From the NCBI GenBank assembly GCA_036785375.1, contig JAWMAR010000008.1, positions 12,586,001 to 12,650,000 on the forward strand: a DNA stretch of 64,000 bases, written 5' to 3'. Below the pieces are notes generated by a model. It saw only the letters and a program-made list of their open reading frames with translations. It was not told the DNA's origin and searched no databases. Shown here in pieces: positions 2,026 through 64,000 of this stretch. The stretch comes from Leucoraja ocellata (Eukaryota). Numbering within the stretch: the stretch's first letter is position 1; the number at the start of each line of letters is the position of its first letter. The position numbers and the translations under genes are program-made.

Positions 2026-3296
2026 TTGCAGTGTTCTGTGTCGTTGCCCATGGTGAGATAACTCCAACCGAAGATAGACACAAAATTCTGGAGTAACTCA
2101 GCGGGACAGACAGCATCTCTGGAGAGAAGGATTGGGTGACGTTTCGGGATGAGTCTGAAGGAGGGTCTCCTTCACACCACCGCACAACAAATGTTTACAC
2201 AGGTACTGTTTAAAGGGCAGTCATTCTTGCCGTAAACTTACAATAACACCAAAGGAGGCCCTTCAGCCAAAAAGAGCCATGCTGGCCCGAAGGGGGTGAA
2301 GCCCCATCAGTTTCATTCCCTTCTCTCTCAACTTCTCCCTGGCTCATTTTGCCATTCACTTTTTCCCAGTGGAAATGTCAATTACACGGAGGCCATAGCT
2401 TCAATGTGAGGGGGGGGGGGGGGGGGAGCTCAGAGCGGATCCATGAAACCAGATTCTTACACAAAAAGTGGAAACACACATGCAGGGGAAGAAAGTGGTG
2501 GAAGCTGATACTATAGCAAAGTTTAAGAGTTATTTAGACAGGTCCATGAACAGGCAGGGAACAGTTAGATCATGTGCAGGCAGATGGGATTGGTTTAGAT
2601 TGGCATCATAGTCGGTGAAGACACGGAGGATGTTCTGTGTTGATTTATTTTCTATGCAGAGAAGATTACAGTCAGGATTAAGGACCAGTGAGTCGTACAG
2701 TACATAAACTGGCCCTTCACCCCGACTCATCCATGCCAAGCATGAGGTCGGGCGATGTTAATCCCATTTACCTGCAATAGATCCTGTATCCTTCCATGGC
2801 TTTCCTATCAAAATATATGTCCAAATATCCTTTAAACCTTATAACGAACAGTCTGCTGGAGGAACGCAATGGGTCAAGCAGCATTTGTGGGGGAAGGAGG
2901 TGTTGACGTCTCAACGCCCTGATGCAGGGTTTAGACTCAATACGTTGGCAGTTTCTACAGTAGGCTGTAGGAATATTTACTAACTCCCATTTGGAAACAG
3001 CACTAAGACATAAGAATGCAAAGCTTCCTGAATACTGCATTGTATATTTTTAGGCCATTTGAAAATAGTTGAGTAGTTTCTGTGTTAATATTAGAGGAAT
3101 TGGAGGCTAATTCACTGAACACTCATTGTGAATGCCTGGGCAATGTTAGTGCCACTGCTAATCTTATGCAATGTCATTTTTGGTCTACATCTTTAAGAAA
3201 GATTAGTCATTAGCAAAATTTTGAGTCATAAAATCGCATAGTATGGAAATAGGCCCTTCGGCCCAACTGGTCCATGCCGACCAAGATAATCTAAGT

Positions 3297-3388
3297 TACA
3301 CAGAAAAGCTGGAGAAACTCAGCGGGTGCAGCAGCATCTATGGAGCGAAGGAAATAGGCAACGTTTCGGGCCGAAACCCTTCTTCAGA
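3297..3388 (-). mobile_element. Short PLE-derived insertion with intact hammerhead-like core
   Basis: Flanking direct repeat AGATAATCTAAGT (3284-3296, 3386-3398); minus core CTGAAGA-AGGGTTTCGGCCC-GAAACGTT at 3360-3387. Confidence 0.75.
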
Positions 3389-15177: not shown

Positions 15178-17837
15178 CCCTTCCTTCCCCCCCCCGTCCA
15201 GAGATGCTGCCTTTCCTGCTGAGTTACTCCAGCTTTTTGTGTCTATCTTGTGTATAACCGTTCGTATTAGTTTACTGTGAATGTTCGAACAGCGTCACCA
15301 CCTCTACAGGCTGCATGTGTAAAAGAGCAGCCACAACAGATTCACACCCATTTTCAATCAACATGACAAAATAAAACGGATGCGCCGGCACATGGCGCAG
15401 GGCAGAATAACCAGGGAATTATGTTAAACCCGTAGAAAGCGTGGATTCAGCCCACAACTGGAAAAATGCCAAGTCCTCAGAGCAGTTGGAGTAAATACAT
15501 CAGAACGCCTCTGAGAGTGCAAGATTGCAGTTCTGGAGTGGCAACCCAGAATGGGGCTGTTACCCACCGAGCAGCGAGGCTTAGAGAAAATCTATCAGGA
15601 TAAAAAGCAAAGCAGGCCGTGTTCAGCTTGACAACGACAGCACTCAAAAAGGAACAGCTGGTGCCTCATCCGGACCTCGGGTGCTGTCTGTGTGGAGCTT
15701 GCACGTTCTCGCTGTGACCGTGTGGCACCATGCGTCCCACTTTCCTCCCACATCCCAAAGAAGTGCGGGTTCGTAAATTAATTGACCTCTGTAAATCACT
15801 CCCTAGTGTGTAAGGAATAGTTGTAAAAGTGGCATGACGTAAAACTAGTTCTATATAGTTCTTGTAGAACTAGCGGTCGGTGTGAGCTCGGTGTTCAGAA
15901 AGACCTGTTTCCACACTGTACCTTGCAATCAATTAAAAATAAAACGTTTTGAAATTAGAGTTATTAGTGACATTTTTGTGCCAGGGTTGGGGAAAGAGGA
16001 TTGAGGTCAGACTGTAAATGTAGCGTGGATAGGAGTAGGGCTGCATTTCTGAATGGAGTCAAGGAAGCCTTTATTGCAGAAATAGTGGGGAAAAACGAAA
16101 ATTGCAGGATTAAATTGCAGGATTGCAGACTGGAAATGTTGCATTAACTAGATTGTTCTTCAGAAAATCTGGCACAGATATAATGGGTAGAATAGCTTCC
16201 TGCCTGCACTGGAACAAGATCTTGTGTTCTGAAATGAGCAAGGTGAAGCTATAATTTGAAGAGATCTAACTTCTCTGCAGTTTTTCTGCCTTTGACGAGG
16301 GAAACGTTGGGAGATTGCTGTGTTAGTTCCCTTGATGGGAAAGCCAAAAGAACTGACATCAAGCAAATAGCATATCATGGTGAAATTAATTAACGCCTAA
16401 GGCTTGCATTACAAGTTGGTCTCAAGTCAAAAGCTCAGAAAGACAACACCTTGCGCCTGACAGCAAGTTCCATCACCGTCCGGCCTGAAATGAGCTTGCT
16501 GTTTGGTTAGGTTGGGGAGGGGCTGCGAACGGCTTATGAAGTGTTTGTCAGTTTGCATAATATCGGATGACGGCAGACAGCAGTGCGGAAGCCACTGCCC
16601 TGTCTCGCCTGGCGCAGCCCCAGAGGACGATCAAGTGTTGGCAGTCAGGCAACACTGATGGGTGAGACAGTGTAGACTCTTGCCAGAGTAAGGGAATCGA
16701 GAACCAGAGGACACAGGTTTGAGGTGAAGGGGGAGAGATTTAATAGGAGTCTGAGGGGTAACCTTTTCACAATGGGGTGGTGGGTGTATGGAACGAGCTG
16801 TTGGAGAGGTAGTTGAGGCAGGGACTATTGCAGAGATAATTAGACATGTATATGGATAGAAACATAGAAAATAGGTGCAGGAGTAGACCACTCGGCCCTT
16901 CGAGCCTGCACCGCATTCAATATGATCATGGCTGATCATCCAACTCAGTATCTTGTACGTGCCTTCTCTCCATACCCCCCTGATCCCTTTAGCCACAAGG
17001 GCCACATCTAACTCCCTCTTAAATATAGCCAATGAACTGGCCTCAACTACCTTCAGTGGCAGAGAATTCCAGAGATTCACCACTCTCTGTGTGAAAAATG
17101 TTTTTCTCATCTCGGTCATAAAAGATATCCCCCTTATCCTTAAACTGTGACCCCTTGTTAGAAACATAGGACAGGTTTGGAGAGATATGGGCCAAAGGCA
17201 AGCAGGTGGGACTAGTGTATATGGGACATATTGGTCGGTGTGGGCAAGTTGGGCCGAAGGGCCTGTTTCCACGCTGTGAGACTCTATGACTCGATGACTT
17301 TGTAAAGCACGGCTCACCCTCCCACCCACCGTGGCAATCCTACCCTCCCCCCCCCCCCCAACCCCCCACCCTCTCAGCATGGGACAGGAGTTTTAGTTTA
17401 GTTTACAGATACAGAGTGGAAACAGGCCCTTTGGCCCACCGAGTCCGAGCCGACCAGCACTACACTAGTCCTATCCTATGTACTAGGAACAATTTACAGA
17501 AGCCAATTAACCTACAAACCTGCACGTCTTTGGATTGTGGAACCGGTCACCCGGAGAAAACCCACACGGTCACGGGGAGAACGTACAAACTCTCTACAGA
17601 CAAGCACCCGTGGTCCTGATCGAACCCGGGTCTCTGGCGCTGTAAGGTAGCAACTCTTGTTCACAGGATACACGTGAGGGAGCTCACCCCATGGGCTGGG
17701 GGCCAGTGGTCACTCCAAGGGTCTGGTGCCCAGCAGGGATGTGTGTCGAGCACGGGGAGAAAGTTTGGTCCATGGTACTTTTGGCCATGATGGATTGCTT
17801 GTTTTCCACAGGTTTCCTGACGAGCGGGGTGCCCCAG

Positions 17838-17960
17838 ATGTCAGCACACAGAGCAACGTGCCCCGCTCCAGCAGACGCGAGTTACCTGTCCGCACTGCTG
17901 GACGGCAAACCGACCGTGTGCCGGCGGCAGGGTGACCCGCAGCGGCAGCTTCTACACACC
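17838..17960 (+). CDS. FOXN1: FOXN1 first major coding exon (copy 2; acceptor gives exon start 17812)
   Basis: tttccacag acceptor; ATG 17838; 41 codons MSAHRATCPAP...RRQGDPQRQLLHT; donor CC|GTGAGT. Same 123-nt coding length and phase 0 as the first human FOXN1 coding exon as recalled, with a shared RQGD motif. Confidence 0.75.
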
Positions 17961-19761
17961 GTGAGTATTTCTAATCTGCACACAACTGCATTCCCAGTCG
18001 CGCCCAGCACTGCAGGAGCAGCCCTGCATCCTGCACCCTCGCACCCCCTCTCCCAAATGACCATCTCCATCCGCCGACATCCCCAACCAGCAACTCGTTT
18101 CTCTCCCCGACACCTGGGCTCCTGCATTGAGGCTTTCAGGAGCAACGCAACGCGAGCACCAAATGCTCAGACATTTAGCCAGGGCTGTAATACATCTGGT
18201 GCAGTTCATCCGATGTTCGGGACTCTACGATGCTTGCAGTTGACAACAGTTATTCAAACTAATCATTCACGTGAGCAGAAGCAGTCCAAGGGGGCAGAGT
18301 CTTGCCCGAGTCAGAATGTTGTGGAGGTAACATTCACCAGGGGGACCTGAACATATGTTGAAACCACGAAGCCAGTGTGAGGGGCACACCTGAGAGGGCA
18401 TGCACTCTCCCAGGGCACACCTGAGGATGTACACTAATGAAGGGCACACCTGAGTGAGTGCACACTGTCACAGGGCACACCTGAAGATGCACACTAACGC
18501 AGGGCACACTTGAGGATGCACACTATTGCAGGGCACGCCTGAGGAAGCGTGCACTATCGCAGGGAATGCTCGAGGGACTGCACTAATAAAGGGCTCACCT
18601 GTAGGAGTTCCCATAGAAACATAGAAAATAGGTGCAGGAGTAGGCCATTCGGCCCTTCGAGCCTGCACCACCATTCAATATGATCATGGTTGATCATCCA
18701 ACTCAGTATCCTGTACCTGCCTTCTCTCCATGCCCCCTGATCCCTTTAGCCACAAGGGCCACATCTAACTCCCTCCTAAAACATTGTCACACGGCACACC
18801 TGAGGGTGTGCTCACTATTGCAAGGCACACCTCAAAATGCACACTAACGCAGGGCACACTTGAGGATGCACACTACCCCTGGGTACACCACTATAGTGGT
18901 TTTACGTAAGAGTAATTGCTCCTAAATCGGCCTCTCACAGTGTGGTGACCTGTACATATCACAATGATGTGACGGCTCACTACTTGGTTCTAATCAATTG
19001 GATTAAGAATGTAATATGCAGAGTCTTCTCTGTCAACAGCCTCACAATGAGCTGATGATAGAATGCATCCTTTGCAACACAGGGGCACAATGTACAGTAC
19101 AAATTACACCTGCCGCTGCATTTAAAGTGCTGCAGGAATAGTTCAGCAAGTTCAAATACTTGGGGAAGCAAATCAGATAATCCAGTAAAAGAGAATCAAA
19201 CAGGTTCAGTGAAGGTAATTGCCCTCGGAGCCAGGGAGCCAGTGCAAGGCCACTGCTGGTCAACACACACACCTTTAGCCAATGAAGCTGTAAATCATAT
19301 TATATTAAATCCTACAGATAGACACTGATAGATTGAGTCTGAAAAAGGGTTCCGACCCAAAACCTCACCCATCCTTTTCCTCCAGAGATGCTGCCTGACC
19401 CGCTGGATTATTCCAGCACTTTGAGTCTACCTTCGGTGTAAACCAGCATCTGCAGTTCCTTTCTACACACTTAATGTCAATCTTTCTGCTTTAAAAGTTG
19501 GAGTGCAGAGGGAAGCGATGAGAATTCAAGTTGCAGACACAACTGCAGGAGACGTTGGCTGGAAAGTGAATTGTAGATGTCTAGGGTGACCTGTGACACC
19601 TAATCTCCAGGGATAGATTTCCACAAGTGGTTCCAGGCCATCAAAGGATAAGGTTGCTCGACTTGGAATGCAGTATTCCCAAGGGGCAGATGACTGACAA
19701 TCAATTTACTTCCTCAATTACAGCCTGGATAAGATGACACATCATTGGGAGGTCCCTGTGT

Positions 19762-19801
<40 letters not shown>

Positions 19802-20023
19802 GTTTACTAATGTCTTGTAAACCTCTTCTGCACCTTATCCGAAGCCGCTACATCCTTCTATGATGTACTGACCAGAACTCTACACAATACTCCAAACGTG
19901 GCCTGTCCACAATGTGTATAAAGCTTCACCATGACTTCCTGACTCTTGTACTCTGTGCCCCGACCGATGAAGGGAAGCTCTCCGTACGCCTTGTTTTCCA
20001 CTCTATCTGTGCTTCTATTCCAG

Positions 20024-20161
20024 GGCCAGAACTGCAAGGATGAGAATGAAGCGCTGGTGGGCTGTGGGTTTGAGCAGACTGCCCTGAGCTGCCCTGAGCT
20101 GCTGCACTACCGCTCTCCAGCAATGCATGATTACTGCCCCGCTCCTGCTCTGCTGCAGCAG
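20024..20161 (+). CDS. FOXN1: FOXN1 N-terminal region exon (copy 2), 138 nt
   Basis: ctattccag acceptor, CAG|GTATGC donor, phase 0/0. GQNCKDENEALV...LLHYRSPAMHDYCPAPALLQQ resembles the YQPPLQHMYC..HQ exon that precedes the pre-forkhead exon in mammalian FOXN1. Confidence 0.75.
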
Positions 20162-22793
20162 GTATGCCCACTGCAGGGACCAGCACCAATGCAGCCATCT
20201 CGGCCCATCGCACGGGCACCAAATGATCAGATAAAAGTTGCAGCCTTGCCTGTGGCTGGTAATGGCAGTGCCCAATTGTTAAACATTAGAGCAGACACAA
20301 CAATTTCTAGTCAAATATCAGGTGCAATACTGGGAAAAAGTGTACAATTACTGCAGGCAAAATATGCCCAACACCAGAGGGATCATGTAACTATCTGTAC
20401 ACTGTAATTGGCTCAATTGTAATCATGTATAGTCATTTTGCTGACTAGTTAGCAAGCGTCAAAAGCTTTTCACTGTACCTCGGTACACGTGACAATAAAC
20501 TAAACTGAATGAATTAAGGTGTTAATCAGTTCTCCCTTCTGAAACGGGTGCAGAATTTAGTTTAGTTTTGAGATACAGCGTGGAAACAGGCACTTCAGGC
20601 CACCTAATCTGCACCGATCTCCGCACACTAACACTATCCTACACACTAGGGCCAATTTACAATTTTTACCCAAGCCAATTAATCTACCAACCTGTACGTC
20701 TTTGGAGTGTGAGAGGAAGCCAGAGCATCTGGAGAAAACCATTTAGGTCACGGGGAGAATATACAAACTCCATAGAGACGGCACCCGTAGTCAGGATCGA
20801 ACCCGGGTCTCTGGCGCTGTAAGGCAACATCTCTATCGCTGCACCACCGTGCCGACCCTACTGCTTGGACATATATTGAGGGGCTGACATCTGGCTAAAG
20901 ACCCCTGCCTGAGATCCGTCAGCAACCAGGCAAGCTCCAACTAGTACTTCGAGCTCTACCGCAACCCAACGCCTCCGGTCCTAACAGCAATGGCCGGACA
21001 CTGTCTAGTGACAAAGTAACATTTGCCACTTGCCTTAATGTGAAGCACCTCCCTCTGCCTCCCACTCCCCAGTACCCTGGCTGAGAGCCCTGGTGTCTTG
21101 TTCTGAATCTAACAGGTGAAGTGAATCCCAACCAGTATATACCCAGAGCTTACATGGATGAGATGAGATGACCCATCCCAGTCTGCTGATCAATAGGTGG
21201 CCATCTGGGTTCCAATGCTTCCCCCATGGGTGTAGGACTGGAGACCCAGTGTGTTGTACACAGAGCTACAGGTGTGAATTACATGATAGATGTCATTAAG
21301 CTGAAAAGAATGCAGAGGGCGCTGCCAAGACTGGAGGGCGTGAGCTATAGGGAAAGGTTTTGCACACAAGGCCTTTATTCCTTGGAGCACAGGAGGCCGA
21401 GGTGCAATCTTATATAATCATGAGGACATTGGCAGGGTGAATGCAGAGGAAAATCAGGAACTAGAGGGCACGGATTTAAACTGTGAGGGGAGAGATTTAA
21501 TAATAAGCTGAAGGGCAACATTTTCACACACAAGGTGGTGGGTATATGGAATGAGCTGCCAGAGGAGGTAGTAAGGCATTTGGACCACTACATAGATGGG
21601 AAAGGTCTAGAGGGCTATGGGCCAAACACAGGAAAATGTGACTAGCTTAGATGGGGCACCTTGGTCTTCATGGCTGAGTTGGGCTCAAGGTTCTGTTTCC
21701 GTGCTGTATGACTCTATATCTCCTTGAGAGTGTGTTCCACTGACAAATAGAAACATGGAAAATAGGTGCAGGAGTAGGCCATTCGGCCCTTCAAGCCGAA
21801 TGGAATACTATCATGCTGGCATGAACCTGCCACTGAACTAGGAATCAGCAGAACACAGCGATGGAGCTGCTTGAGCTGCTGCCTCACAGCACCAAGAATC
21901 CGGGATCGATCCTGACCTTAGGTCCTGTTTGTGTGGAGTTTGCACATTCTTACTGTGACTGCATGAGTTTCCTTTGGGTGCTCCGGTTTCCTCCCACATC
22001 CCAAAGACCTGCGGGTTTTGTATGTTCATTGGCCTCAGTAAAATTGCCCTTGGTGTGTAGGGATTAGACGCAAAAGTGGAAGCGTGTAGAAAAAGTGTGA
22101 ATATGATCGATTGTCAGCATGACTCGGTGGGTTCAAAGGCCTGTTTCCTTGCTGTATCATTCAATGCAATTCAATCCAATACTGTGTTTTCTCTCAGATA
22201 CATGTTTAGACTCTGGGTTTATAGGAGCAGAAACAAGTTGCTTTTATGTATTGCCTTCCTGAGGAGAGTTATCAAATAAGATTTGACCAACCCATGTAAA
22301 AAGTATCAGGATATATGGCCGACCAAACCAACGTGCAAACGTTTACGGAGGATCATAAATGAACACGATGGAATCTGGATATACCAGAGTCAAGGACAGA
22401 GGACAGGTCTTGGGGGATATGGGGCCAGATCAGTTTACAGACATAGGGAGTGAAGAGGTCACTGAGGGAATTGAAAACAAGAATGAGAACTGTACAAGTA
22501 TTGATTTTACAAGTTTGGGAGCTAGAGAAGATCAGGAAACTGGGGAATACAAGATATACGGGAGCTGGATAGCTCAGACACAAGCAGCGGAGGTGGTTGT
22601 GGTTGGGGAAGATGTAAAGGCTGGGTTATTGAGTGTGAGCTTTGCAAGATGAGAACAACTTTACATTTCAAATTAGCTTTACATGTGAGGATGTTGAAAT
22701 GATAGTTCCAGAGACATACTGGTCTATGCAGATCCAAGTTAGTCTTTGATTTCAGTCCAGACTTTAACTGTTGAACTTGTCTTTGTTTATCAG

Positions 22794-22921
22794 TACCCTG
22801 CTATGACGGGTTACTCTGGGGGTATCCCACCGACTGTCCCGTACTCTTACCAAAGGATTGCACCTCACGTTAACCAGGATATGCATCACCTGCTCTACCC
22901 CAAGCCCATCTACTCATACAG
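22794..22921 (+). CDS. FOXN1: FOXN1 exon entering the forkhead domain (copy 2), 128 nt
   Basis: tttatcag acceptor, AG|GTAAAG donor. YPAMTGYSGG...YSYQRIAP...LLYPKPIYSY(S), the characteristic FoxN1/4 forkhead start. Confidence 0.93.
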
Positions 22922-23329
22922 GTAAAGTCAGCCCCAGTGATCGGCCTACCCTTGTAACTGTCGCCCTGTTCAAACTGGTACTGATGCTAATCTGAGGCAA
23001 GAAGCTGACCGTCACGAGGCTGCGTAGGAAAGGTGGGCCGAGCGGCCTGCCCCCCTGGTGGATATTCAGTAGAACTTGTGCCTGTGTAAGGAATGAAAAG
23101 GAGGCAGCATTGAAGCAGGGCTCAAAAATACAGGACTGAGGTCTGCGTGTAACTTTTAAGAAAACGCTTTGAAATCCATAATTTTGAACAAATCTTTGTT
23201 CATGTATTAATATCGGAGGTTTTGTAACTGGGCGGGGTTGATGCTGTACAGGGATTTGAACAGATTAATCATCACTTAAAATCGAAATATTGCTGTATCA
23301 GGAGCCAGCAAAGGTCAACAACAGGGGGT

Positions 23330-23655
23330 GTTGGGGGAGTGGGCTCGTGGTGGGGGAGTGGGCTAGTATTAGAGGAGTGGATGGTGGTGGGGGAGTGGGC
23401 TAGTGGTGGGGAGTGGGCTAGTATTAGAGGAGTGGGTGGTGTTGGGGGAGTGGGCTAGTGGTGGGGAGTGGGCTAGTGGTGGGGAATGGGCTAGTATTAG
23501 AGGAGTGGGCTAGTGGTGGGGAGTGGGCTAGTGGTGGGGAGTGGGCTAGTGGTGGGGAGTGGGCTAGTGGTGGGGGAGTGGGCTAGTATTAGAGGAGTGG
23601 GCTAGTGGTGGGGAGTGGGCTAGTGGTGGGGAGTGGGCTAGTGGTGGGGAGTGGA
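23330..23655 (+). repeat. G-rich 17-18 bp VNTR (GGGGAGTGGGCTAGTGGT)
   Basis: Many tandem units; only ~4 units at the matching site 12123-12190. Confidence 0.9.
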
Positions 23656-23965
23656 CTGATCCTGGGGGAAGTGGTGTTGTGGAGTGGGTTGGTTTTGGGT
23701 AGTGGGATAGTGATGTGGAGCTGGTTGGTGTTGGGGGAATGGGTAAGTGTTGGTGGGGTGGGCTGGGGGGAGGTGATCTGGTCCTGGGGCAACTGGCAAT
23801 GGGGGGGGGGGGGGGATGGTGTAGGGGTGGGTTTCTAAAATACCTTCAAGTTGGTCCCTGGGTCAAATCAGACGGAGATTGTGTGAGGGACCAAGGAGTT
23901 GGGAAGAGATTTGTTTTGTGTCAATAACAAGCACATTCCCTCAGTGTGTCCCTGCTTCCTCTCAG

Positions 23966-24062
23966 CATTCTGATCTTCATGGCTCTGAAGAACAGTAAAA
24001 CAGGGAGCTTGCCTGTCAGCGACATCTACAACTTCATGACGGAGCATTTCCCTTACTTTAAG
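23966..24062 (+). CDS. FOXN1: FOXN1 forkhead exon, 97 nt, intact (copy 2)
   Basis: ctctcag acceptor, AAG|GTAAGA donor; [32 protein letters not shown]. Confidence 0.96.
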
Positions 24063-26950
24063 GTAAGATTCCACCCCTGCATCTTGATCGGACAAAACAG
24101 CTTTAACTAACTACATGTCTCATTGAGCAAAGCACTGAGCTAGTCAGGACCTGCTACCACCGGCAGCTCTGTGTAGCACTTCCAAGGACTCAAGCAGTGA
24201 GAGTGGGTGCAACATCCACAACCACCTTATAATTGTGAACGACATTGAAATCCAAGCTATTTACTTACAAAAGATAGACACAAAAAGCGAAACGAAAAAC
24301 GAAAGCCAAAAAACAGAAACGTTACCCATTCCTTCTCTTCAGAGATGCTGCCTGTTCCGCTGAGTTACTCCAGCTTTTTGTGTCGATCTTCGGTTTAAAA
24401 CAGCATCTGCAGTTCCTTCCCGCACATTTTATTTACTTACAAAAACAGTTCCGCTGAGTGAATTGTGGTAGTTTACATGGAGGGAATGAAAGCTCCGGGG
24501 AGTTCCTGTGTCTGGACAACCTGTCATGGGACGATGCGAAGAGCTGGGAGGAGATGAGTGAGATTAACCCCCCACCCCCCACACACCAATAACAACCACT
24601 GTTGACGATGTTATACATCTTATTGTGGATCCAAAAGCATAGATCAGACAAAAAGAAGTAATTAATGATCATGTTCAGGGAATTAAGAAATCCGATCCCA
24701 TACAACTGCAGTTATATCCACTATATGGGCCACAGATAGGGAGAATTCATAGTCTTTTCCCCAGAGTAGGGGAATCGAGAACAAGCAGTCAAAGGTTACA
24801 GGTGAGAGAGGAAAGATAAGAACCTGAGAGATAACTGCTTCACACAGAGAGTGGTGGGTATATGCGAGGAGCTGGCAGATACAGTGGTTGAGGCAGGTAC
24901 TTTAACATTTAAAATACTTTTAATTTGTGTACCATGAATAGGAAAGGTTTAGTAAGTCAAGTATAGGCAAATGGGACTAGCTTTAATGGGCATCCTGGTC
25001 GGCATGGACGTGTTGGGCCGAAGGGCCTTTGTCCATGCTGTAAGACTCTATGACTCAATCTGATGCATCATCGTACATCTAACTGTCAGGTGGGCAGGTA
25101 CAATACAGTCATATTCCTTGCCTTTATATTGCAAACCTGTTCCACAAAAGATGCTTCTAGTCAATAGTTTATGCTGAGTTCCCGTCATTCCACGCCCCCC
25201 CCCCCACCCCCCTGTATCATTGCACGATCCTGCTGCAGGAACCCCCTTGAGTGTTTAGCTCTGCAGCCTCGCATTACACTATCAACAAGCTGCAGTGACC
25301 CTGTGTGACCAGCAGGTAGTGCTCAATCACCACACGCAGCACGGAGAACGTCCAGCCCCAAACCCCTCACAGCGCCTGAGAACTGGGTTCGATCCTGACC
25401 TCAGGTGCTGTCTGTGTGGAGTTTGCACGTCCCCCTTGTGATCATGGGTGATCCTGTTTCCTCCCACATCCTGAAGACGTGCAGGTTAATTGGCTGCTGT
25501 AAATTTTCCCTGTTGTAAAGGGAGTGGGTGAGAAAGTGGGATAACATGGAACTGGTATGAACGGGTAATGTGAACAGGCCCTGTCTCCATGCCGTATCTT
25601 GCAATCAAATCAATCACTCAATCTTTGCCAAGGGCAACATGAAACTGCAGAATATTTATCTCCTGGGGTCTCCTGAATCTACACCTGAGCGCTGACCCCC
25701 CTGTACCCAGGCCACTGCACAATTATTAATGAATGCTGTGCTGACCACATGTCTTCTGATTCCCTTAATACCCTGGTCGGTACGGACTTGACACGGTGTT
25801 ATTAGCCCCTGTCCCACTTTCCCGAGTTACTCACGAATTCTCCCGAGTTTTCCTCTTGATTCAAACTTGGAGATGCCAGCCGGAGGTACTCGGGGCTAGT
25901 TTTTTTACTCGTGGACATTTTCCAACATGCTGAAAAAATATCCCGACTAAATGCCCCTAGTACCTACGGCTGGCATTACGAGTCGCTACGAAATATCTAC
26001 GGACTCCTACGACCTACGGACTCGCTACGGACATTCTCCGAGTTTGAATCAAGTGGAAAACCCGGGAGAATTCGTGAGTAACTCGGGAAAGTGTGACAGG
26101 GGCTGACTATGAGTTCCATGTGTACGGAGTTTGTACGTTCTTCCCGTGACATGCGTGGGTTTTCTCTGAGATCTTCGGTTCCTTCCCACACTCCAAAGAC
26201 GGACTGATCTGTAGGTTAATTGGCTTGGTATGATTGTCCCTAGTGGGTGTAGGGTAGTGTTAACGTGTGGGGATCGCTGGCCGGTGCGGACTCGGTGGGC
26301 CGAAGGGCCTGTTTCCGTGCTGTATCTCTATACTAAACTAAACTAAAAAGCCTGCAAACTATCAATTGCTGCATTAAGCAACTGTGACCACAGATCCTAT
26401 AGCGATAGGATCTTTGACTGTGACCGAGGATCCACTGCCCTCTGGGGATGAGAATTCCAAAAATTCTGAGTGATAACATTTATCCCATCACAATCTCAAA
26501 CAGCTGACGCCTTCTGCCGAGAATGATGCCTAATCCTAGACCTCGCTGGAAGCATCCTCCGTGTATCTGGCCGGCCTGTCGAGAAAACCCTGGAAGAAAT
26601 GAGATCTCCGGTTTTGCAAAGCTCCAGAGAACACACACAATCTTTCCTCATGGAGCCTGCTATCCCTGGGACCAGAAGATGGACACAAAATGCTGGGGTA
26701 ACTCGGGGGGGGGGGGGGGGGGGGGGGTCAGGCAGCATCTCTGGAGAAAAGGACTAGGGTCGGAACCCTTCATCAGCCCCACGGCACGTCCCAACCCGAA
26801 ACGTCACCTCTTCCTTTTCTCCAGAGATGCTGCCTGACCCGCCGAGTTACTCCAGCATTTCGTGCCTATCTTCAGTATAAACCAGCATCTGATGTTCCTT
26901 CCTACGCATTTCCCCTGGCACCAGTCCAGGGAACCTGCACGCCCTCTGTG

Positions 26951-27133
26951 TTTAAGAAGGAACTGCAGATGCTGGAAAATCGAAGGTACACAAAAATGCT
27001 GGAGAAACTCGGCGGGTGCAGCAGCATCTATGGAGCGAAGGAAATAGGCAACGTTTCGGAATCGAAACGTTGCCTATTTCCTTCGCTCCATAGATGCTGC
27101 TGCACCCGCTGAGTTTCTCCAGCATTTTTGTGT
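26951..27133. mobile_element. Palindromic PLE-derived insertion
   Basis: ~75-bp inverted arms; 18-bp direct repeat ACCTGCACGCCCTCTGTG at 26933-26950 and 27134-27151. Confidence 0.8.
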
Positions 27134-28842
27134 ACCTGCACGCCCTCTGTGGCAGCTGCACCTTTTTAAGATTAGGAGCCCCAAACTGAATTTAGTGTTC
27201 CAGGTGTAGTCTCACCAAAGCCTGCAGTTACATGCCCAGGCAACTCCAACATCGCCTCCAACCACCTGACACTAGCCACAGGCGCATGAGGGTGTGAATG
27301 AGTATTTTCCACCTAGAGTCATCGTGGAGAATTCAGGTTGGGGGATGGTACAATCCTGCAGCAAAATATAAAATGAGATCTCCGGTTTTGAGACGGTATT
27401 AGATATCTTAGTGAGTTTATATGTGGATTAGAGCCAAAAAGCCCATCGGCCCATCACATCTATGCCAACTATCTTCATCAGCCCATGTACCAACCTTCAA
27501 TGCGTTGGCAAGACTATTGGGAGTCACCTCTTAATATCTAAACACCTCTGAACCATTGTGTGAGAGTCTGCCTTCACCACCACCTACTAGAAGGGCCGAG
27601 ATGGCCTGTTTCCGTGCTGTAATTGTTATATGGTTATATGGTTACATTCCAGATTCCAACTATCCTCTGGGTGAAAAGATTCTTTCTCAGATCCTGTTTA
27701 ACCCACTTACATCGTTTCCTGCATCCATGCCATCTAGTCTTAGATACCTCTGATTTGGAGAAATGTTTCTAACTGATCACGCTCTCCACATGTCTCTCAT
27801 CGCGATGTATATCAACCTCCACCTCAAGCTTTCTCTACTTCATGGAAAACGAACCCAGACACAGTGGGTGGAAGGGTCGGTTACTGCGCTGTTTGTCTCC
27901 TTGACCACCCAGCACATTCTCCCTCGAGTCACTCACGGTCCTATGTCGAAGTTTATCGCTGGTCGTATATCGTAGTCACTGGATGTAATTCCCGATCTGC
28001 ATTCCCAACCTTGGTGTGGGAGATCTTCATCAGAAACACTGCAGCGGTTCCATGGGCAGGTCACGCCCATCTTCACTAGGGCAGTAAGGAGTGGGCAATG
28101 ACTGCCAGCAACACCCAGATCCCCAGAAAGGAATGTATAAGACCATCTATCTATGAATAATAAGACCATCTATCTTAATGGGAGCCCATCTCCAAGCCTG
28201 ACTACCAGCATTAACCCACAGCCCATAAACCACAGCCCAAAATGTGGGGGGGTTGCAGGTTAATTGGCCTCTACAAATTGCCCCGTGTGTGTTGGGAGTG
28301 GATGATAAAGTGGGATAACATGGAACTAATGTGAATGGATGATCAGCATGGACTGGGTGGGCTGAAGGTCCTGCTTCCATGCTGTATCAATCAAACTAAA
28401 ATCTCCATCACTGGCCCCCATTTTCATGACATGGCATCAGTGCCAAAATACAGAGCCAGCCCTCACCCAGACTAGATGAAGGCAGTGTGGAGGTGGTGAC
28501 TGAGGACTTGTTGGCCGGCAGTCATGATGCCTGAGTCTGTGGAATTCTCTGCCTCAGAGGGCGGTGGAGGCTGGTTCTCTGGATGCTTTCAAGAGAGAGC
28601 TAGACAGAGCTCTTAAAGATAGCAGAGTCAGGGGAGAAGGCAGGAATGGGATACTGATTGTGGATGATCAGCCATGATCTCATTGAATGGCGGTGCTGGC
28701 TCGAGGGGCTGAATGGCCTACTCCTGCACCTATTGTCTATTACTGACCGTCACTTTGAGCCCCGGGTTCTGCCGACAATGGCTCGGGGGATAGGCAGAGC
28801 CTGGTGAAGTAAAGACCACGGTGTGTGCCCTCGTTGTTGCAG

Positions 28843-48968: not shown

Positions 48969-49226
48969 ATTAGCACTACCATGGCCCTCCGCTTTGGGAT
49001 TGACTCCCTCAACCTTTCCACCCCCTCTCGCTTGTTTCTTCCTTTACGGTGCTCCTGAGTCCCCGTCTCTTTGACCAGGCTGGTCTGGATTTCCACTGGA
49101 ACATGAATGTTAAACTCCAGTGCAGTTTAGGAAACGCTGCCTTGCCATTAGTATCTGGGTTCCAGTCAAGATGTTACCCTGAAGTCCTGATAACTATTGT
49201 ATCCAAAGGTCATTCTACCTTACGTG

Positions 49227-49400
49227 AAGCTAGACAAAAATGCTGGAGAATCTCAGCGGGTGAGGCAACATCTATGGAGCGAAGGAAATAGGCGACGTTT
49301 CGAGTCTCGACTTCGCTCCATAGATGCTGCCTCATCCGCTGATTTTTTCCCTGCATTTTTGTCTACCTTCCATTTTCCAGCATCTGCAGTTCCTTCTTAA
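49227..49400. mobile_element. Palindromic PLE-derived insertion
   Basis: Same arms (GCTGGAGAA.CTCAGCGGGTG...CTATGGAGCGAAGG) and tail CCAGCATCTGCAGTTCCTTCTTAAAC. Confidence 0.7.
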
Positions 49401-49479
49401 ACATTTCGTCTACCTTATTTGACATAACTTCTAACAAAATCTACTCTCAACCTAAGTGGACTCGAAACTAGACACTACA

Positions 49480-50531: not shown

Positions 50532-50603
50532 AAGTGCTCTGGTGGGATAACTGACTGGAGACACAAGGTGCTGGAATCTTGAACAAACCACAAAGTGCTG
50601 GAG

Positions 50604-50788
50604 GTACACAAAAATGCTGGAGAAACTCAGCGGGCGCAGCAGCATCTATGGTGCGAAGGAGATAGGCAACGTTTCGGCCCCCGAAACGTTGCCTATCTCC
50701 TTCGCTCCATAGATGCTGCTGCACCCGCTGAGTTTCTCCAGCATTTTTGTGTACCTTCGATTTTCCAGCATCTGCAGTTCCTTCTTAA
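50604..50788. mobile_element. Palindromic PLE-derived insertion
   Basis: Long inverted arms; 14-bp TSD ACAAAGTGCTGGAG (50590-50603, 50789-50802). Confidence 0.8.
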
Positions 50789-51195
50789 ACAAAGTGCTGG
50801 AGACTGTAAGAAGTATCCCAACCTGAAACATCATCTATCTATTCCCTACAGAGATGCTGCCTGACCCAGCGAGTTCCCTCCAGAGATGCTGCCTGACCCA
50901 GTGAGTTCCTCCGGCACCTTGTGTTCTGTTTGAGGGAGAAATGGCTGTCTGAAGAAACCAAACAAAATCCACTCTTTGTACAGGATCAGGTCTCCCCTGG
51001 GGATACAGTGCAATGAAACATGCACAACCTGCTTAGCCCAGGCAATGTACAAGGAGGAGTGGCAGAAAATAATGAATGGAATATATGCCAAGTGACGTGC
51101 AGGTTAGTAGTTTAATTAGCTTCTGTAAATTGTCCCTAGGATATACGATGCAGAAATGGGCTAACATAGAAGAACCAGTGTATGGATGATCGATG

Positions 51196-51346
51196 GTTAC
51201 ACAAAAAAGCTGGAGAAACTCAGCGGGTGCAGCAGCATCTATGGAGCAGCATCTATGCTCCAAAGATGCTGCTGCACCCGCTGAGTTTCTCCAGCTTTTT
51301 TGTGTAACCTTCGATTCTCCAGCATCTGAACTTCCCTCTTAAACAC
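51196..51346. mobile_element. Palindromic PLE-derived insertion inside a SINE
   Basis: 15-bp TSD TATGGATGATCGATG (51181-51195, 51347-51361). Confidence 0.8.
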
Positions 51347-52355
51347 TATGGATGATCGATGATCGGCATGGGCTCGCTGGGCCGAAGGGCCTGTTTCCAC
51401 TCTGTATCTCCGAAGTAAACTGCTTTATCCGTGATCACTATTTTCACAGCACGGTTCATAACTTAAAATAAAATTTTACGGCCACTGTGCTTTTGAAGTG
51501 GTTATAGTTAAGCAGGAAATGTTGCGGCCAAATTACTCACAACAAGCTCGTACTCTTGAGGGTGAATGAGCAGATCACCGGAGACAGTGATCTTTGTTGA
51601 GGGATAAATGGGGCTGTCCAGAATGATCAAGGGCCTGTTTGAGTCAGAGTTCATGCAGGAGCTTGTTTAGCCTATATCCAACACAGCAGCAGAACCAGAT
51701 GCAGCAGGCAGCATCCACCTCCCTTCCCTCCACACAGGCATACAGCGGCAGTTATTCCAGTACTCCCAGCTCGGATGACCAATTTTTCAATCATCTTGTA
51801 AACAAAAATTTGATTAAATGGTATGGCATTGAAACAGGCCCTTTGGCCCACCGAGTCCATGCCAACAGCTGTTCATGCTCGTTCTGTTGCATCCACTCCC
51901 TGCACACTAGGGTTAATATAAAGATGCCCTTAACCAGCAAACTCAAAACCGGAGCAATCAGAGGAAACCCATGCGGTCACTGGGAAACATGCAAACTCCA
52001 CAGAGACAGCACCTGAGGTCCAGGTTGATCCTGGGTCTCTGGTGCTGTGAGACTGCAGTTCTACCACCCACTGTGCCATCCAAGGTGAGAAATCCCAGTC
52101 CAGAATTCCTTATGCATTTGGGGATTACAATATGTGATGTTCCTTCCTGCCAATCACTCCCACCCTCCACCCCTTCCCCCATGCATGGTAATCAAGGATA
52201 AATCATTCTGGTTCTTTGCCTACAATGCAGGGCCACGTCACCCGGGTCAGAAATAACCAACCTTAAGCAATTCAGGGATCCAGCACATCCACTATCGCCC
52301 CAGGGAAAGAACATGAGGAATCGACAGCATGTAAGATGGGCCAAATGGGCCCGTC

Positions 52356-53816: not shown

Positions 53817-54080
53817 TCAATCCACCTTCCGCCTCCACTTCAGGTCCTTCCCTGACTTCAGCAAGGACAGCACGATGGGGACACACACGGGGAGGAACAG
53901 GGGGATGTAAATGGCAAACTTCTGATCGTCCGGGAAGTACAGGAGGTGGAGGAGCGACGGGTCGAAGAAGGCTTTCTCCGACGAGGTGATGGCGTTTTTG
54001 CTGGCTTGGAAGGCGAGCAGGAGCCTCCCAGCCTCCAGCTCCTCCAGTGACAGCTGAACGGAAGCCACGGCTCTGTACAC
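53817..54080 (-). CDS. PIGS: PIGS last exon (GPI transamidase subunit PIG-S)
   Basis: VYRAVASVQ...[32 protein letters not shown]...RRKVD*; ctgcag acceptor. Confidence 0.96.
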
Positions 54081-54782
54081 CTGCAGTTACAGGGAGAGAG
54101 ACAAGCATTACCCGAGGAAACATAGAAAATAGGTGCAGGAGTAGGCCATTTGGCCCTTTGAGCCTGCACCGCCATTCAATATGATCATGGCTGATCATCC
54201 AACTCAGTACCCTGTACCTGCCTTCTTTCCATACCCCCTGATCCCTTTGGCCACAAGGGCCACATCTCACTCCCTCTTAAATATAGCCTGGCCTCAACTA
54301 CCTTCTGTGGCAGAGAATTCCAGAGATTCACCACTGTCTGTGTGAAATTTGTCCGTGTGGTGGGGTTTGTCCGTGTGGTGGAGTTTGCTCGTGTGCAGTT
54401 TGCCCGTGAGGAGACAAAGCTCAAGTGCTAACACGGAGTAAACATACAACTGGCTTTCAGTGGACTACAGAATGAGACCATGCTCCCTGTGTCCAATTCC
54501 CACTTGACCTGCTATTTCTTGTTGTGCTTTTTTCCCTTTTAGTTTAGTTTAAAGATACAGTGCGGAAACAGGCCCTTTGGTCCATCGAGTCCGAGTCTCT
54601 GGCACTGTGAGGGAGCAACCACCCACGGTCCTGTGACCTGCCAGGGGATCTGTCTGTACCTACTGACAATCGCAGGAACCGGGTGTGGGTGGGAGAGACA
54701 GGCAAGGTAGTGTGACACCTTTACAACCGCACTCCAACACACAGCCACATACATGAGGAAGAAAGAGAGCAGCTAAACCCAC

Positions 54783-60957: not shown

Positions 60958-61980
60958 ATAGAAACATAGAAAATAAGTGCAGGAGTAGGCCATTCGGCCC
61001 TTCGAGCCAGCAATATGATCATGTCTGATCATCTAAAATCAGTACCCCATTCCTGCTATCTCTTGATTCCATTAGCCCTAAGAGCTAAATCTAACTCTTT
61101 CTTGAAAACATCCAGTGAATTGGCCTCCACTACCTTCTGTGGCAGAGAATTCCACAAATTCACAGCTCTCTGGGTGAAAATGTTTTTCCTTGTCTCAGTC
61201 CTAAATGGCCTACCCCTTATTCTGAAACTGTGACCCCTGGTTCTGGACTCCCCCAACATTAGAAACATTTTTCCTGCATCTAGCCTGTCCAATCCCTGAA
61301 GAATTTTATGTTTCTATAAAAACCCCTTATCCTTCTAAATTCCAGTGAATACAACACATTTCTCATCATATGTCAGTCCCGCCATCCTGGGAATTAACCT
61401 GCTGCACTCCCTCAATAGCAATAATGTCCTTCCTCAAATCAAGATACCAAAACTGCACACAATACTCCAGGTGAAGTCTCACCAGGGCCCTGTACAACTG
61501 CAGTAGAAGCTCCTTGCTCCTAAACTCAAATCCTCTCAACATGAAGGCCAACATGCTATTAGCTTTCTTCACTGCCTGCTGTACCTGCATGCTTACTTTC
61601 AGTACACAAAATTGCTGGAGAAACTCAGCAGGTGCAGCAGCATCTATGGAGCGAAGGAAATAGGCGACGTTTCGGGCCGAAACCCTTCTTCAGACTGAAG
61701 ATCGAAGGTACACAAAATTGCTGGAGAAAGTCAGCGGGTGCAGCAGCATCTATGGAGCGAAGGAAATAGGCGACGTTTCGGGCCGAAACCCTTCTTCAGA
61801 CTGAAGAAGGGTTTCGGCCCGAAACGTCGCCTATTTCCTTTTCAACTTCGATCTTCCAGCATCTGCAGTTCCCTCTTGAACACTCTGCTTACTTTCAGTG
61901 ACTGATCTACAAGGACATCAGGTCTCGTTGCACCTCCCGTTTTACCAATCTGACACCATTCAGATAATAATCTGCCTTCT
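60958..61980 (-). mobile_element. CR1 LINE fragment (hosts the PLE-derived insertion)
   Basis: QVQQAVKKANSMLAF...LYRALVRLHLEYCVQFW; TRGHSFRIRG. Confidence 0.85.
61604..61885. mobile_element. Tandem + inverted PLE-derived insertion with three hammerhead-like cores
   Basis: 14-bp TSD TGCTTACTTTCAGT (61590-61603, 61886-61899). Minus cores at 61666-61693 and 61772-61799; plus core at 61801-61828. Confidence 0.8.
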
Positions 61981-62718: not shown

Positions 62719-62833
62719 CGAGTTTGGCTTCAACTGGATTGATCACATGGGGTAAGCTCTCCTCAGTCAATGAGAAGCTGGACGAGGACTTGTCGAAGCG
62801 CGGTGTCACGCCGAGAACTGCATAATACAGTAT
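62719..62833 (-). CDS. PIGS: PIGS exon (115 nt)
   Basis: [38 protein letters not shown]; tttgcag acceptor, G|GTAAGA donor. Confidence 0.94.
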
Positions 62834-63524
62834 CTGCAAAAGGAAGGGCATGAGTCACAAAGAGTCAGGATACCTTAGTGCACACAAAACTGAAAATCTT
62901 GTAACCATACTGAAGACCATGGAAGTGAGAGATCATCTTTAAAAGCCCATCTCATTTCCCCAACTCCTACGTAATCCTAAGGCTTAGATATTGTGCTTTC
63001 AGTTGAAGGATAGTAACCCTGCACCTGGCAGTCTAATATTGTGCTGAATTACAAGATCTTATTACATGATATAATCATCATCTGTACTGCATATGTAGCC
63101 CCAGTGGACAGCTGTTAAAGAAGTGAAGATAGACAAAAAAAAGCTGGAGAAACTCAGCATATCTGGAGAGAAGGAATGGGTGACTTTGGGTCGAGAGTCT
63201 TCTTCAGACTGACGTTTCAGGTCAAGACCCTTCTTCAAAAAGAAGTGATCTGATTATTAATTTATCTGTTGTTTAATGATGATGGATGGTTGTCAAATTC
63301 CCTCCATTACAACTGTGTCTGCTCTTCATCGATTGCCAAGTGCTTTGCGACAATATGAGGCTGAGGGAGGATGATTATATCAATCAAAAGGTATCTATGG
63401 TGTTGATTTGCTGTGGTTCCCTCTTCTCCCGCCACCCCTGACAGGCAGCACTGCAGTCCTGCACGTGTCCAACCCCACACTGCCTGATGCAGGGTTACAG
63501 GAGGTGCAGCCAACTCAGTCCTAC

Positions 63525-63667
63525 CTGAGAGTCCACGGAAAAGTTGGCAACAAAGGACAGCTTGTCCAGGAAGGGCTGCACGTAATTCTCCACAGCTCGC
63601 TTGATATCCCAGCAAACATCGTGGAACTTGGGATCAGGATTCAACAGACTGAAGGTGATTTCATAGC
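63525..63667 (-). CDS. PIGS: PIGS exon (143 nt); the gene continues beyond the window
   Basis: [48 protein letters not shown]; ttttcag acceptor, CAG|GTAGGA donor. Confidence 0.94.
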
Positions 63668-64000
63668 CTGAAAAAGAGTAGAAACCCCCCCCAGAAATTC
63701 AAGCGACCTCCAATAAATAAATATACAGACAAACCAATGACCATCACGGCACTTGCTGCATCTGACCATGGTTACTGTTTAAATAGTAATTAATAATGTA
63801 ATTGATAAAGTTAAATAACATGTTTACTTTACTATGGGCAGCACACTCTAAATACCTAACAGATAGAATGCATCAGACCCCTACGGTAAGATGAGCCCAA
63901 GGATAACAGTCCGATATCCCCCCCCCCCCCCCCCCCCGCTTGTTGCTTTGAAGTGTTAGCCAAGAGGATTAAAATCAGCAATGACGATCCCCAGTTTAAT

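Follow-up and report, generated by a model that had tools for sequence, protein, structure and literature searches.

The insertions that Penelope-like elements (PLEs) leave behind show a characteristic structure. A typical PLE insertion comprises a partial tandem, an inverted 5′ copy and an optional tail of 30-40 bp at one end only, and this fold-back layout is general in PLEs, being also present in Naiads, which are without hammerheads (PMC8557442). Two direct copies and one inverted copy of the end repeat (pLTR), flanked by a TSD, have likewise been described, and the palindromes at their junctions were put down to self-priming (PMC3846280). The optional tail has been tied to two internal starts of reverse transcription (Frangieh et al. 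2024, PMC11167929). According to the same work, the PLE ribozyme of the anole cleaves only with its protein, and RNA ends were not found at the ribozyme site.

Dimers of minimal hammerhead ribozymes (min-HHRs) cleave weakly in vitro (PMC4209133; review PMC6765202). Metazoan retrozymes are built of 150-450 bp units with canonical ribozymes, and their circles are highly self-paired (PMC7229834). Under the rule applied by Li et al. (2026, bioRxiv 10.64898/2026.07.22.740005), an array counts as a retrozyme if it contains two or more TRF units and each of them carries a hammerhead motif that folds below -5 kcal/mol; one of nine such dimers from Xenopus cleaved in vitro in that study.

We analyzed a stretch of 64,000 nucleotides of Leucoraja ocellata (contig JAWMAR010000008.1, positions 12,586,001 to 12,650,000; hereafter the window), in which a preliminary description had recognized a TSD-flanked insertion with two direct hammerhead cores and one inverted core, and had taken it for a retrozyme-like unit. 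The arrangement itself was confirmed by a check of the window sequence: the 310-bp feature (61590-61899) contains two minus-strand cores spaced 106 nt and one inverted core (Table 1), and the two copies of the 14-bp TSD are identical and enclose 282 nt. The direct repeats (61602-61701 and 61708-61807) are 100 nt each and show 98% identity, and TRF run on the insertion reports a period of 106 with 1.9 copies. A perfect palindrome with arms of 40 bp (61760-61799 and 61801-61840) is centred on position 61800. Read along the PIGS strand, the insertion runs from the inverted tail (+130 to +92) through a filler of 5 nt to the inverted stretch +39 to 0, passes the apex, and continues with one direct stretch from 0 to +102 and another from about -5 to +91. 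Five nucleotides of microhomology (61697-61701) are common to copy 2 and the tail piece of copy 1.

Table 1. Coordinates of the insertion and of its host features in the window. Element positions are numbered with the C of CUGA as 0; a dot marks features to which no strand is assigned.
Feature	Position	Strand	Remarks
TSD, left copy	61590-61603	.	14 bp; last 2 nt common with the element end
Direct pLTR copy 2 (3′ end of the insertion)	61602-61701	-	Stops at +91; core 61693-61666; predicted cleavage between 61666 and 61665
Direct pLTR copy 1	61697-61799	-	+0 to +102, last 11 nt being tail; core 61799-61772; predicted cleavage between 61772 and 61771
Fold-back apex	61800-61800	.	Inside the element's TCAG-T-CTGA mini-palindrome
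Inverted pLTR arm	61801-61840	+	+0 to +39, with inverted core 61801-61828; palindromic to core 1
Filler	61841-61845	.	5 nt, where the inverted copy is without +40 to +91
Inverted PLE tail	61846-61884	+	38-39 nt, element +92 to +130; family comparison
TSD, right copy	61886-61899	.	14 bp
Older host repeat receiving the element	61380-61975	-	Sequence comparison
PIGS exon upstream of the host intron	62720-62833	-	PIG-S profile positions 244-286

We consider it highly probable (approximately 0.88) that the feature is a young, heavily 5′-truncated pLTR insertion of a Neptune-type PLE, whose tandem and inverted copies likely arose by template jumps and fold-back within one event of reverse transcription, and which, as a passenger, is predicted to form a long hairpin and not an active dimer.

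The genomic context agrees with that first described. Minus-strand exons matching the Pfam PIG-S family lie on both sides of the insert, at 63498-63698 (E 4e-16) and 53820-54086 (E 6e-33), together with the exon of Table 1, whose limits are approximate (E 1e-7); the insert is therefore intronic and lies on the sense strand of PIGS. The repeat that received the element presumably represents the end of ORF2 of a CR1-type LINE, which it resembles; Pfam gave no clear family for it. Among the fetched sequences, three other copies of this repeat are contiguous across the insertion site, which confirms a true insertion. In a comparison with other individuals for presence or absence of the insertion, the unique contigs ended at 61952 and none spanned the site.

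On sequence evidence, the cores are part of the pLTR of a PLE encoding RT and GIY-YIG. A search of the 3.44-Gb assembly for the exact 28-nt core gave 7,762 matches and for its reversed control none, which shows that the motif is not due to chance; 47,899 matches were obtained with a pattern that crosses the predicted cleavage site and leaves two positions free. Both figures count matches and not events, as the assembly contains near-duplicate loci. In 8 of the first 30 translated loci the core lies 3′ of the end of a GIY-YIG frame. Protein searches revealed frames of up to 763 aa; the locus with this frame (L078) matches RVT_1 at E 4.5e-7 and GIY-YIG at E 1e-3, the latter below the curated cut-off, and its core is placed 117 nt past the stop of the frame. 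In 7 of the 29 loci fetched with the element 5′ region, the repeat also extends beyond its tail into the body of the element, and the pLTR copies that do so have an AUG at +50. Its presence at both ends of the element, after the frame and continuing into the body, identifies the repeat as the pLTR. Copies of the family terminate at +91, the main 3′ end, or at about +130, and at least 22 of the 90 copies sampled have the tail; two 3′ ends about 38 nt apart, corresponding to internal starts of reverse transcription, are also known from the Poseidon PLE of Anolis (PMC11167929).

A CX4CX2C linker is located between RT and GIY-YIG in L077, L078, L080 and L081 and is degenerate in L079, frame and linker having been read in these relatives and not at the PIGS locus. 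A CX2-5CxxC linker before the endonuclease marks Neptune and Nematis (PMC8557442), and Li et al. (2026) found vertebrate PLEs to belong to either Neptune or Poseidon. The linker motif and the host group together point to an element that is likely of the Neptune type.

In its structure, the insertion resembles those of Neptune-clade EN+ PLEs (PMC8557442, PMC3846280), with which it has in common the 5′ truncation, the partial tandem, the inverted 5′-truncated copy, the TSD, the one-ended tail of 30-40 bp and the hammerhead within the pLTR; a pLTR with the first codons of the frame and a Zn-finger-like linker before GIY-YIG are further likenesses, visible in full-length relatives. It differs from them in that each copy comprises only ~100 nt of the pLTR and a coding body is absent, in the inverted copy being without +40 to +91, and in the two-core 106-nt tandem, which is rare (2 events).

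The cores carry the CUGANGA and GAAA boxes with an NUH triplet, in this case GUC, and both direct cores are intact. As the preliminary description had proposed, they are of the minimal, PLE type: in common with metazoan PLE min-HHRs (PMC4209133) they have an extra base after A9 (before G10.1), a G10.1-C11.1 pair, and a palindromic ACGU (15.1-16.1) for helix III. Another likeness to that group lies in the thousands of solo copies derived from truncated PLEs and in opposite-strand pairs within 100-700 bp. The helices are shorter, with 4 bp in helix II and 2 bp in helix I, versus 7-8 and 4-5 bp in the min-HHRs of Schistosoma (PMC4209133). The weakness of helix I (about 2 bp) had been predicted and was borne out by pair counts in 119 copies, in which pairs 1 and 2 form in 106 and 109, respectively, and pairs 3 and 4 in only 11 and 20. 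Unlike in PLE min-HHRs, the cleavage triplet is GUU in 81 of the first 100 family copies listed, the GUC of this locus being a minority form, and compensatory changes among the copies do not exceed shuffles. GUU is a poorer cleavage triplet than GUC.

An Rfam scan of the feature returned no hammerhead model at E<=10. Its 12 matches were all sub-threshold and mostly concerned hairpin and miRNA models; the miRNA matches, below the gathering scores, result from the perfect hairpin and were rejected. Covariation across genomic copies, to which the preliminary description had also appealed, was not apparent: in 80 distinct variants 89% of cells were paired and one two-sided change was seen, which is not above shuffles (460/500), together with two one-sided U-G/U-A swaps, one of them explicable by CpG decay. 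This test has little power, as the copies are young and drift neutrally. Taken as sequence motifs, the cores are supported as known minimal type I hammerheads in a PLE remnant, their cleavage being a prediction.

Exact-match searches of the genome, the counts of which are lower bounds for junctions, revealed how common each part of the arrangement is. A fold-back apex like that at 61800 occurs at 737 loci, and in 15 of 15 apex loci examined, inverted and direct arms were accompanied by a tail on exactly one arm. The exact 106-nt junction has a single match, the PIGS locus itself. A pLTR end followed by a core within 30 nt was found in 13 matches with mixed spacers, and two whole cores stand in tandem at three of these, which represent two events with spacings of 106 and 113 nt. 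The second event (L104/L105, one duplicated locus) is a separate insertion of the inverted, direct, direct type with a 113-nt period. Given a junction with one match and two-core tandems from two events, the 106-nt unit was rejected as a multiplied family, and the description of a retrozyme-like unit is not supported. The feature adds to the PLE remnants of an arrangement already described, and tens of thousands of such short remains exist in this genome. Caution is due with tandem hammerhead pairs recognized in the sequence only, since such pairs can arise as accidents of copying.

The whole arrangement could have arisen in four steps, whose order is reconstructed from one locus. The element protein would nick the host repeat and the cDNA would begin at the main internal start (+91). 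About 95 nt would then be copied, up to the probable 5′ end of the RNA just upstream of CUGA. The cDNA end would fold back by a few bases at TCAG-T-CTGA and re-prime on the pLTR tail via the 5-nt microhomology, giving the second copy, 106 nt on. Finally, the next 5′ end would fold back again and copy 40 nt of itself, followed by a jump to the tail and joining to the target.

The second direct copy might instead have been added later, by DNA slippage or unequal recombination, to a plain hairpin insertion. The microhomology of 5 nt at the junction and the 98% likeness of the copies would suit such a duplication, but the 6-nt spacer between the direct copies, joined by that microhomology to a few fold-back bases, is the start of the tail, which is absent after copy 2; there is no template for it on that strand, and a simple later duplication cannot explain it. 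The independent L104/L105 insertion, with its own period, also argues against this history, which we regard as improbable. A jump of the reverse transcriptase would fit better.

The 5′ ends of the family suggest where its RNA begins. In 90 copies anchored 3′ of the cleavage site (both hairpin arms and duplicates being counted), 25 ends reach -12 or beyond, 39 fall at -8 to 0, 16 at +1 to +27, 5 at +28 and 5 further in. Most copies begin 5′ of the site and most templates were therefore uncut, and the 47,899 copies that read through the cleavage site were transposed uncut; in the Poseidon PLE of Anolis, too, most templates seem uncleaved (PMC11167929). Four near-full-length loci likewise begin at -9 to 0. 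The pile-up of ends at -8 to 0 falls on an initiator-like TCAGT directly before the core. We take the sequence near -3 to fit the initiator consensus. On the basis of the 5′ ends and this consensus, transcription probably starts near -3, right before the ribozyme core, which would account for the short helix I.

Of the five copies beginning at +28, one has a mutated upstream core and the remaining four loci represent three events. Genome-wide, apparent junctions (three upstream mismatches) numbered 273, 301, 528, 150 and 81 at +26, +27, +28, +29 and +30, respectively. The corresponding filter-corrected estimates of the flank type were 195, 251, 503, 200 and 173, from 20, 20, 30, 20 and 20 junctions classed among the first listed, with obvious duplicates partly skipped for the four controls. 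An enrichment of about 2-3-fold exactly at +28, the predicted cleavage site, is a lead only, since the samples are small and confounded. Several points speak against a real spike: +27 shows a smaller carry-over than would be expected from a spike, the +28 filter is favoured by purine-rich fillers, and a fold-back palindrome there inflates the count. In L110 and L113, the base at +28 directly adjoins a segment of the element body (about +158 to +200), a joint that could reflect a jump off the end of a template that had been cleaved.

It is doubtful, although conceivable, that this genomic record reflects a vertebrate PLE minimal hammerhead that cleaves in vivo, clipping a leader of ~31 nt just upstream of the AUG, with cut templates (a few percent) fixed at GUH^. 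The first AUG is placed 22 nt past the cleavage site and not in stem II, unlike in the Anolis Poseidon element, which belongs to a different clade. If the lead were true, this family of ~50,000 copies would allow ribozyme-cut and uncut templates to be counted from the genome; the matter bears on whether PLE hammerheads cleave in vivo and to what end. The literature searched yielded no account of 5′ junctions truncated at the site of cleavage and no chondrichthyan PLE hammerhead; the supplements of Li et al. (2026) may list the family among chondrichthyan retrozymes.

The fate of the cores in RNA was approached by nearest-neighbour folding, which leaves out tertiary contacts and protein help. 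On the PIGS strand, core 1 is predicted to be wholly paired with the inverted arm, its positions 2-27 being unpaired with p<=0.01. The inverted arm is transcribed ahead of cores 1 and 2 in the PIGS pre-mRNA and would thus pair with core 1 at a time when core 2 has yet to be made. The penalty for forcing the dimer fold is +27 kcal/mol if the arm is left out and +80 if it is included. These predictions place core 1 in a locked 40-bp hairpin and make the dimer fold very unfavourable, and a released 106-nt circle, as first proposed, finds no support in such costs (27-80 kcal/mol). The 106-nt unit is folded no better than shuffles (linear z +0.78; circle -14.8 kcal/mol), and windows of 51 nt fold at -11 and -17 kcal/mol, not as hammerheads.

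The inverted copy had been suggested to act as a built-in silencer. The sequestering of core 1 is upheld by the folding model; the regulatory role is not, since the dimer is removed rather than regulated. We rejected the silencer as an evolved adaptation because the apex is common (737 loci) and is reported in PLEs without hammerheads (PMC8557442).

RNA was examined in four raw-read runs (oligo-dT, single-cell), of which 1-5% each was read and mapped to one natural copy of the family. The species label of these runs differs from the best DNA matches, the reads being mostly 90-95% alike, and the runs probably come from a related species. Depth over the pLTR is in the thousands, with about 17,000-26,000 family reads per run. 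In these libraries, of a probable relative and poorly suited to the purpose, no pile-up of ends was listed at the predicted cleavage site; a joint closing a pLTR circle was absent from the 15 joints shown of 162, in libraries that show small circles poorly. In one run, coverage of the PIGS exon was about 24-44-fold in each direction, against none for the unique intron. No RNA record was listed as containing the window stretch.

According to the fold prediction, core 2 is intact, lies outside the hairpin and has no stable pairing, and it might occasionally cleave the PIGS pre-mRNA with the help of the PLE protein or of a core in another transcript. Family RNA is abundant enough to supply a partner, protein-assisted cleavage is known for the anole PLE (PMC11167929), and a modest excess of 5′ junctions is seen at the cleavage site. 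However, in the tandem the pairs of stem II have a probability of 0.00-0.03, the upstream TCTTCAG is predicted to pair with the CUGAAGA box, tens of thousands of copies (47,899) were transposed uncut through the site, and introns are usually removed faster than slow ribozymes would act. Cleavage by core 2 is accordingly rated slightly below the later duplication, and the reading of a PLE remnant carried as a hairpin is retained.

Tandem units, each with a type I hammerhead motif, and a long TSD are also found in non-LTR retrozymes (PMC7229834; Li et al. 2026), and a derivation from a PLE pLTR is what Li et al. (2026) proposed for retrozymes. Unlike in retrozymes, a canonical ribozyme in which loop 1 and loop 2 make contact is absent, the 106-nt unit is not multiplied, no self-paired circle fold is predicted, and the inverted arm is predicted to block one core. 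A 106-nt circle, were it real, would represent a retrozyme of very small size at the moment of its origin. A tandem that cleaves as a dimer and releases a circularising 106-nt RNA under regulation by the inverted copy is the least probable reading and a very remote one: the intact cores with GUC and palindromic ACGU, the 106-nt TRF tandem, which comes close to the dimer-retrozyme rule of Li et al. (2026), and the weak in vitro cleavage of minimal hammerhead dimers (PMC4209133) are outweighed by the unique junction, the routine inversion (737 loci), the lack of a canonical helix I (2 bp) and of an Rfam hammerhead match, a unit length below the described 150-450 bp with folding no better than shuffles (z +0.78), a predicted cost of 27-80 kcal/mol for the dimer fold, cleavage of 1/9 comparable dimers in vitro (Li et al. 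2026), and the absence of a circle joint (15 shown of 162) or an end pile-up in libraries that are unsuited and from another species.

Several further observations concern the family as a whole. A pyrimidine tract of about 110 nt, ending in CAG directly 5′ of the core (e.g. L082:4530-4649), resembles a 3′ splice site; such a tract and CAG before the core, in the element 3′ untranslated region, may be compared with Penelope of Drosophila virilis. Splicing at this tract as a means of lengthening helix I was considered and dropped, as no such joint was present among those shown and truncated copies are without a common upstream exon. The frame that starts at the pLTR AUG meets the same in-frame TGA after about 40 codons in 6/6 translated copies (L266, L275, L279, L280, L284 and L285), in each case directly after a good match to a splice donor; this TGA in the element 5′ region likely reflects a retained intron, as known for PLEs, or read-through.

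The 737 apex loci, if transcribed, would give long double-stranded RNA, a possible substrate for Dicer or ADAR. The window itself holds many related matches to the core repeat, and further copies of the pLTR family were found in it at 3289-3388, 26948-27137, 49226-49403, 50602-50791 and 51185-51350, several of them being fold-back pairs. Another PLE copy (L080:1690-2200) contains a long array of 27-nt tandem repeats 5′ of the RT region.
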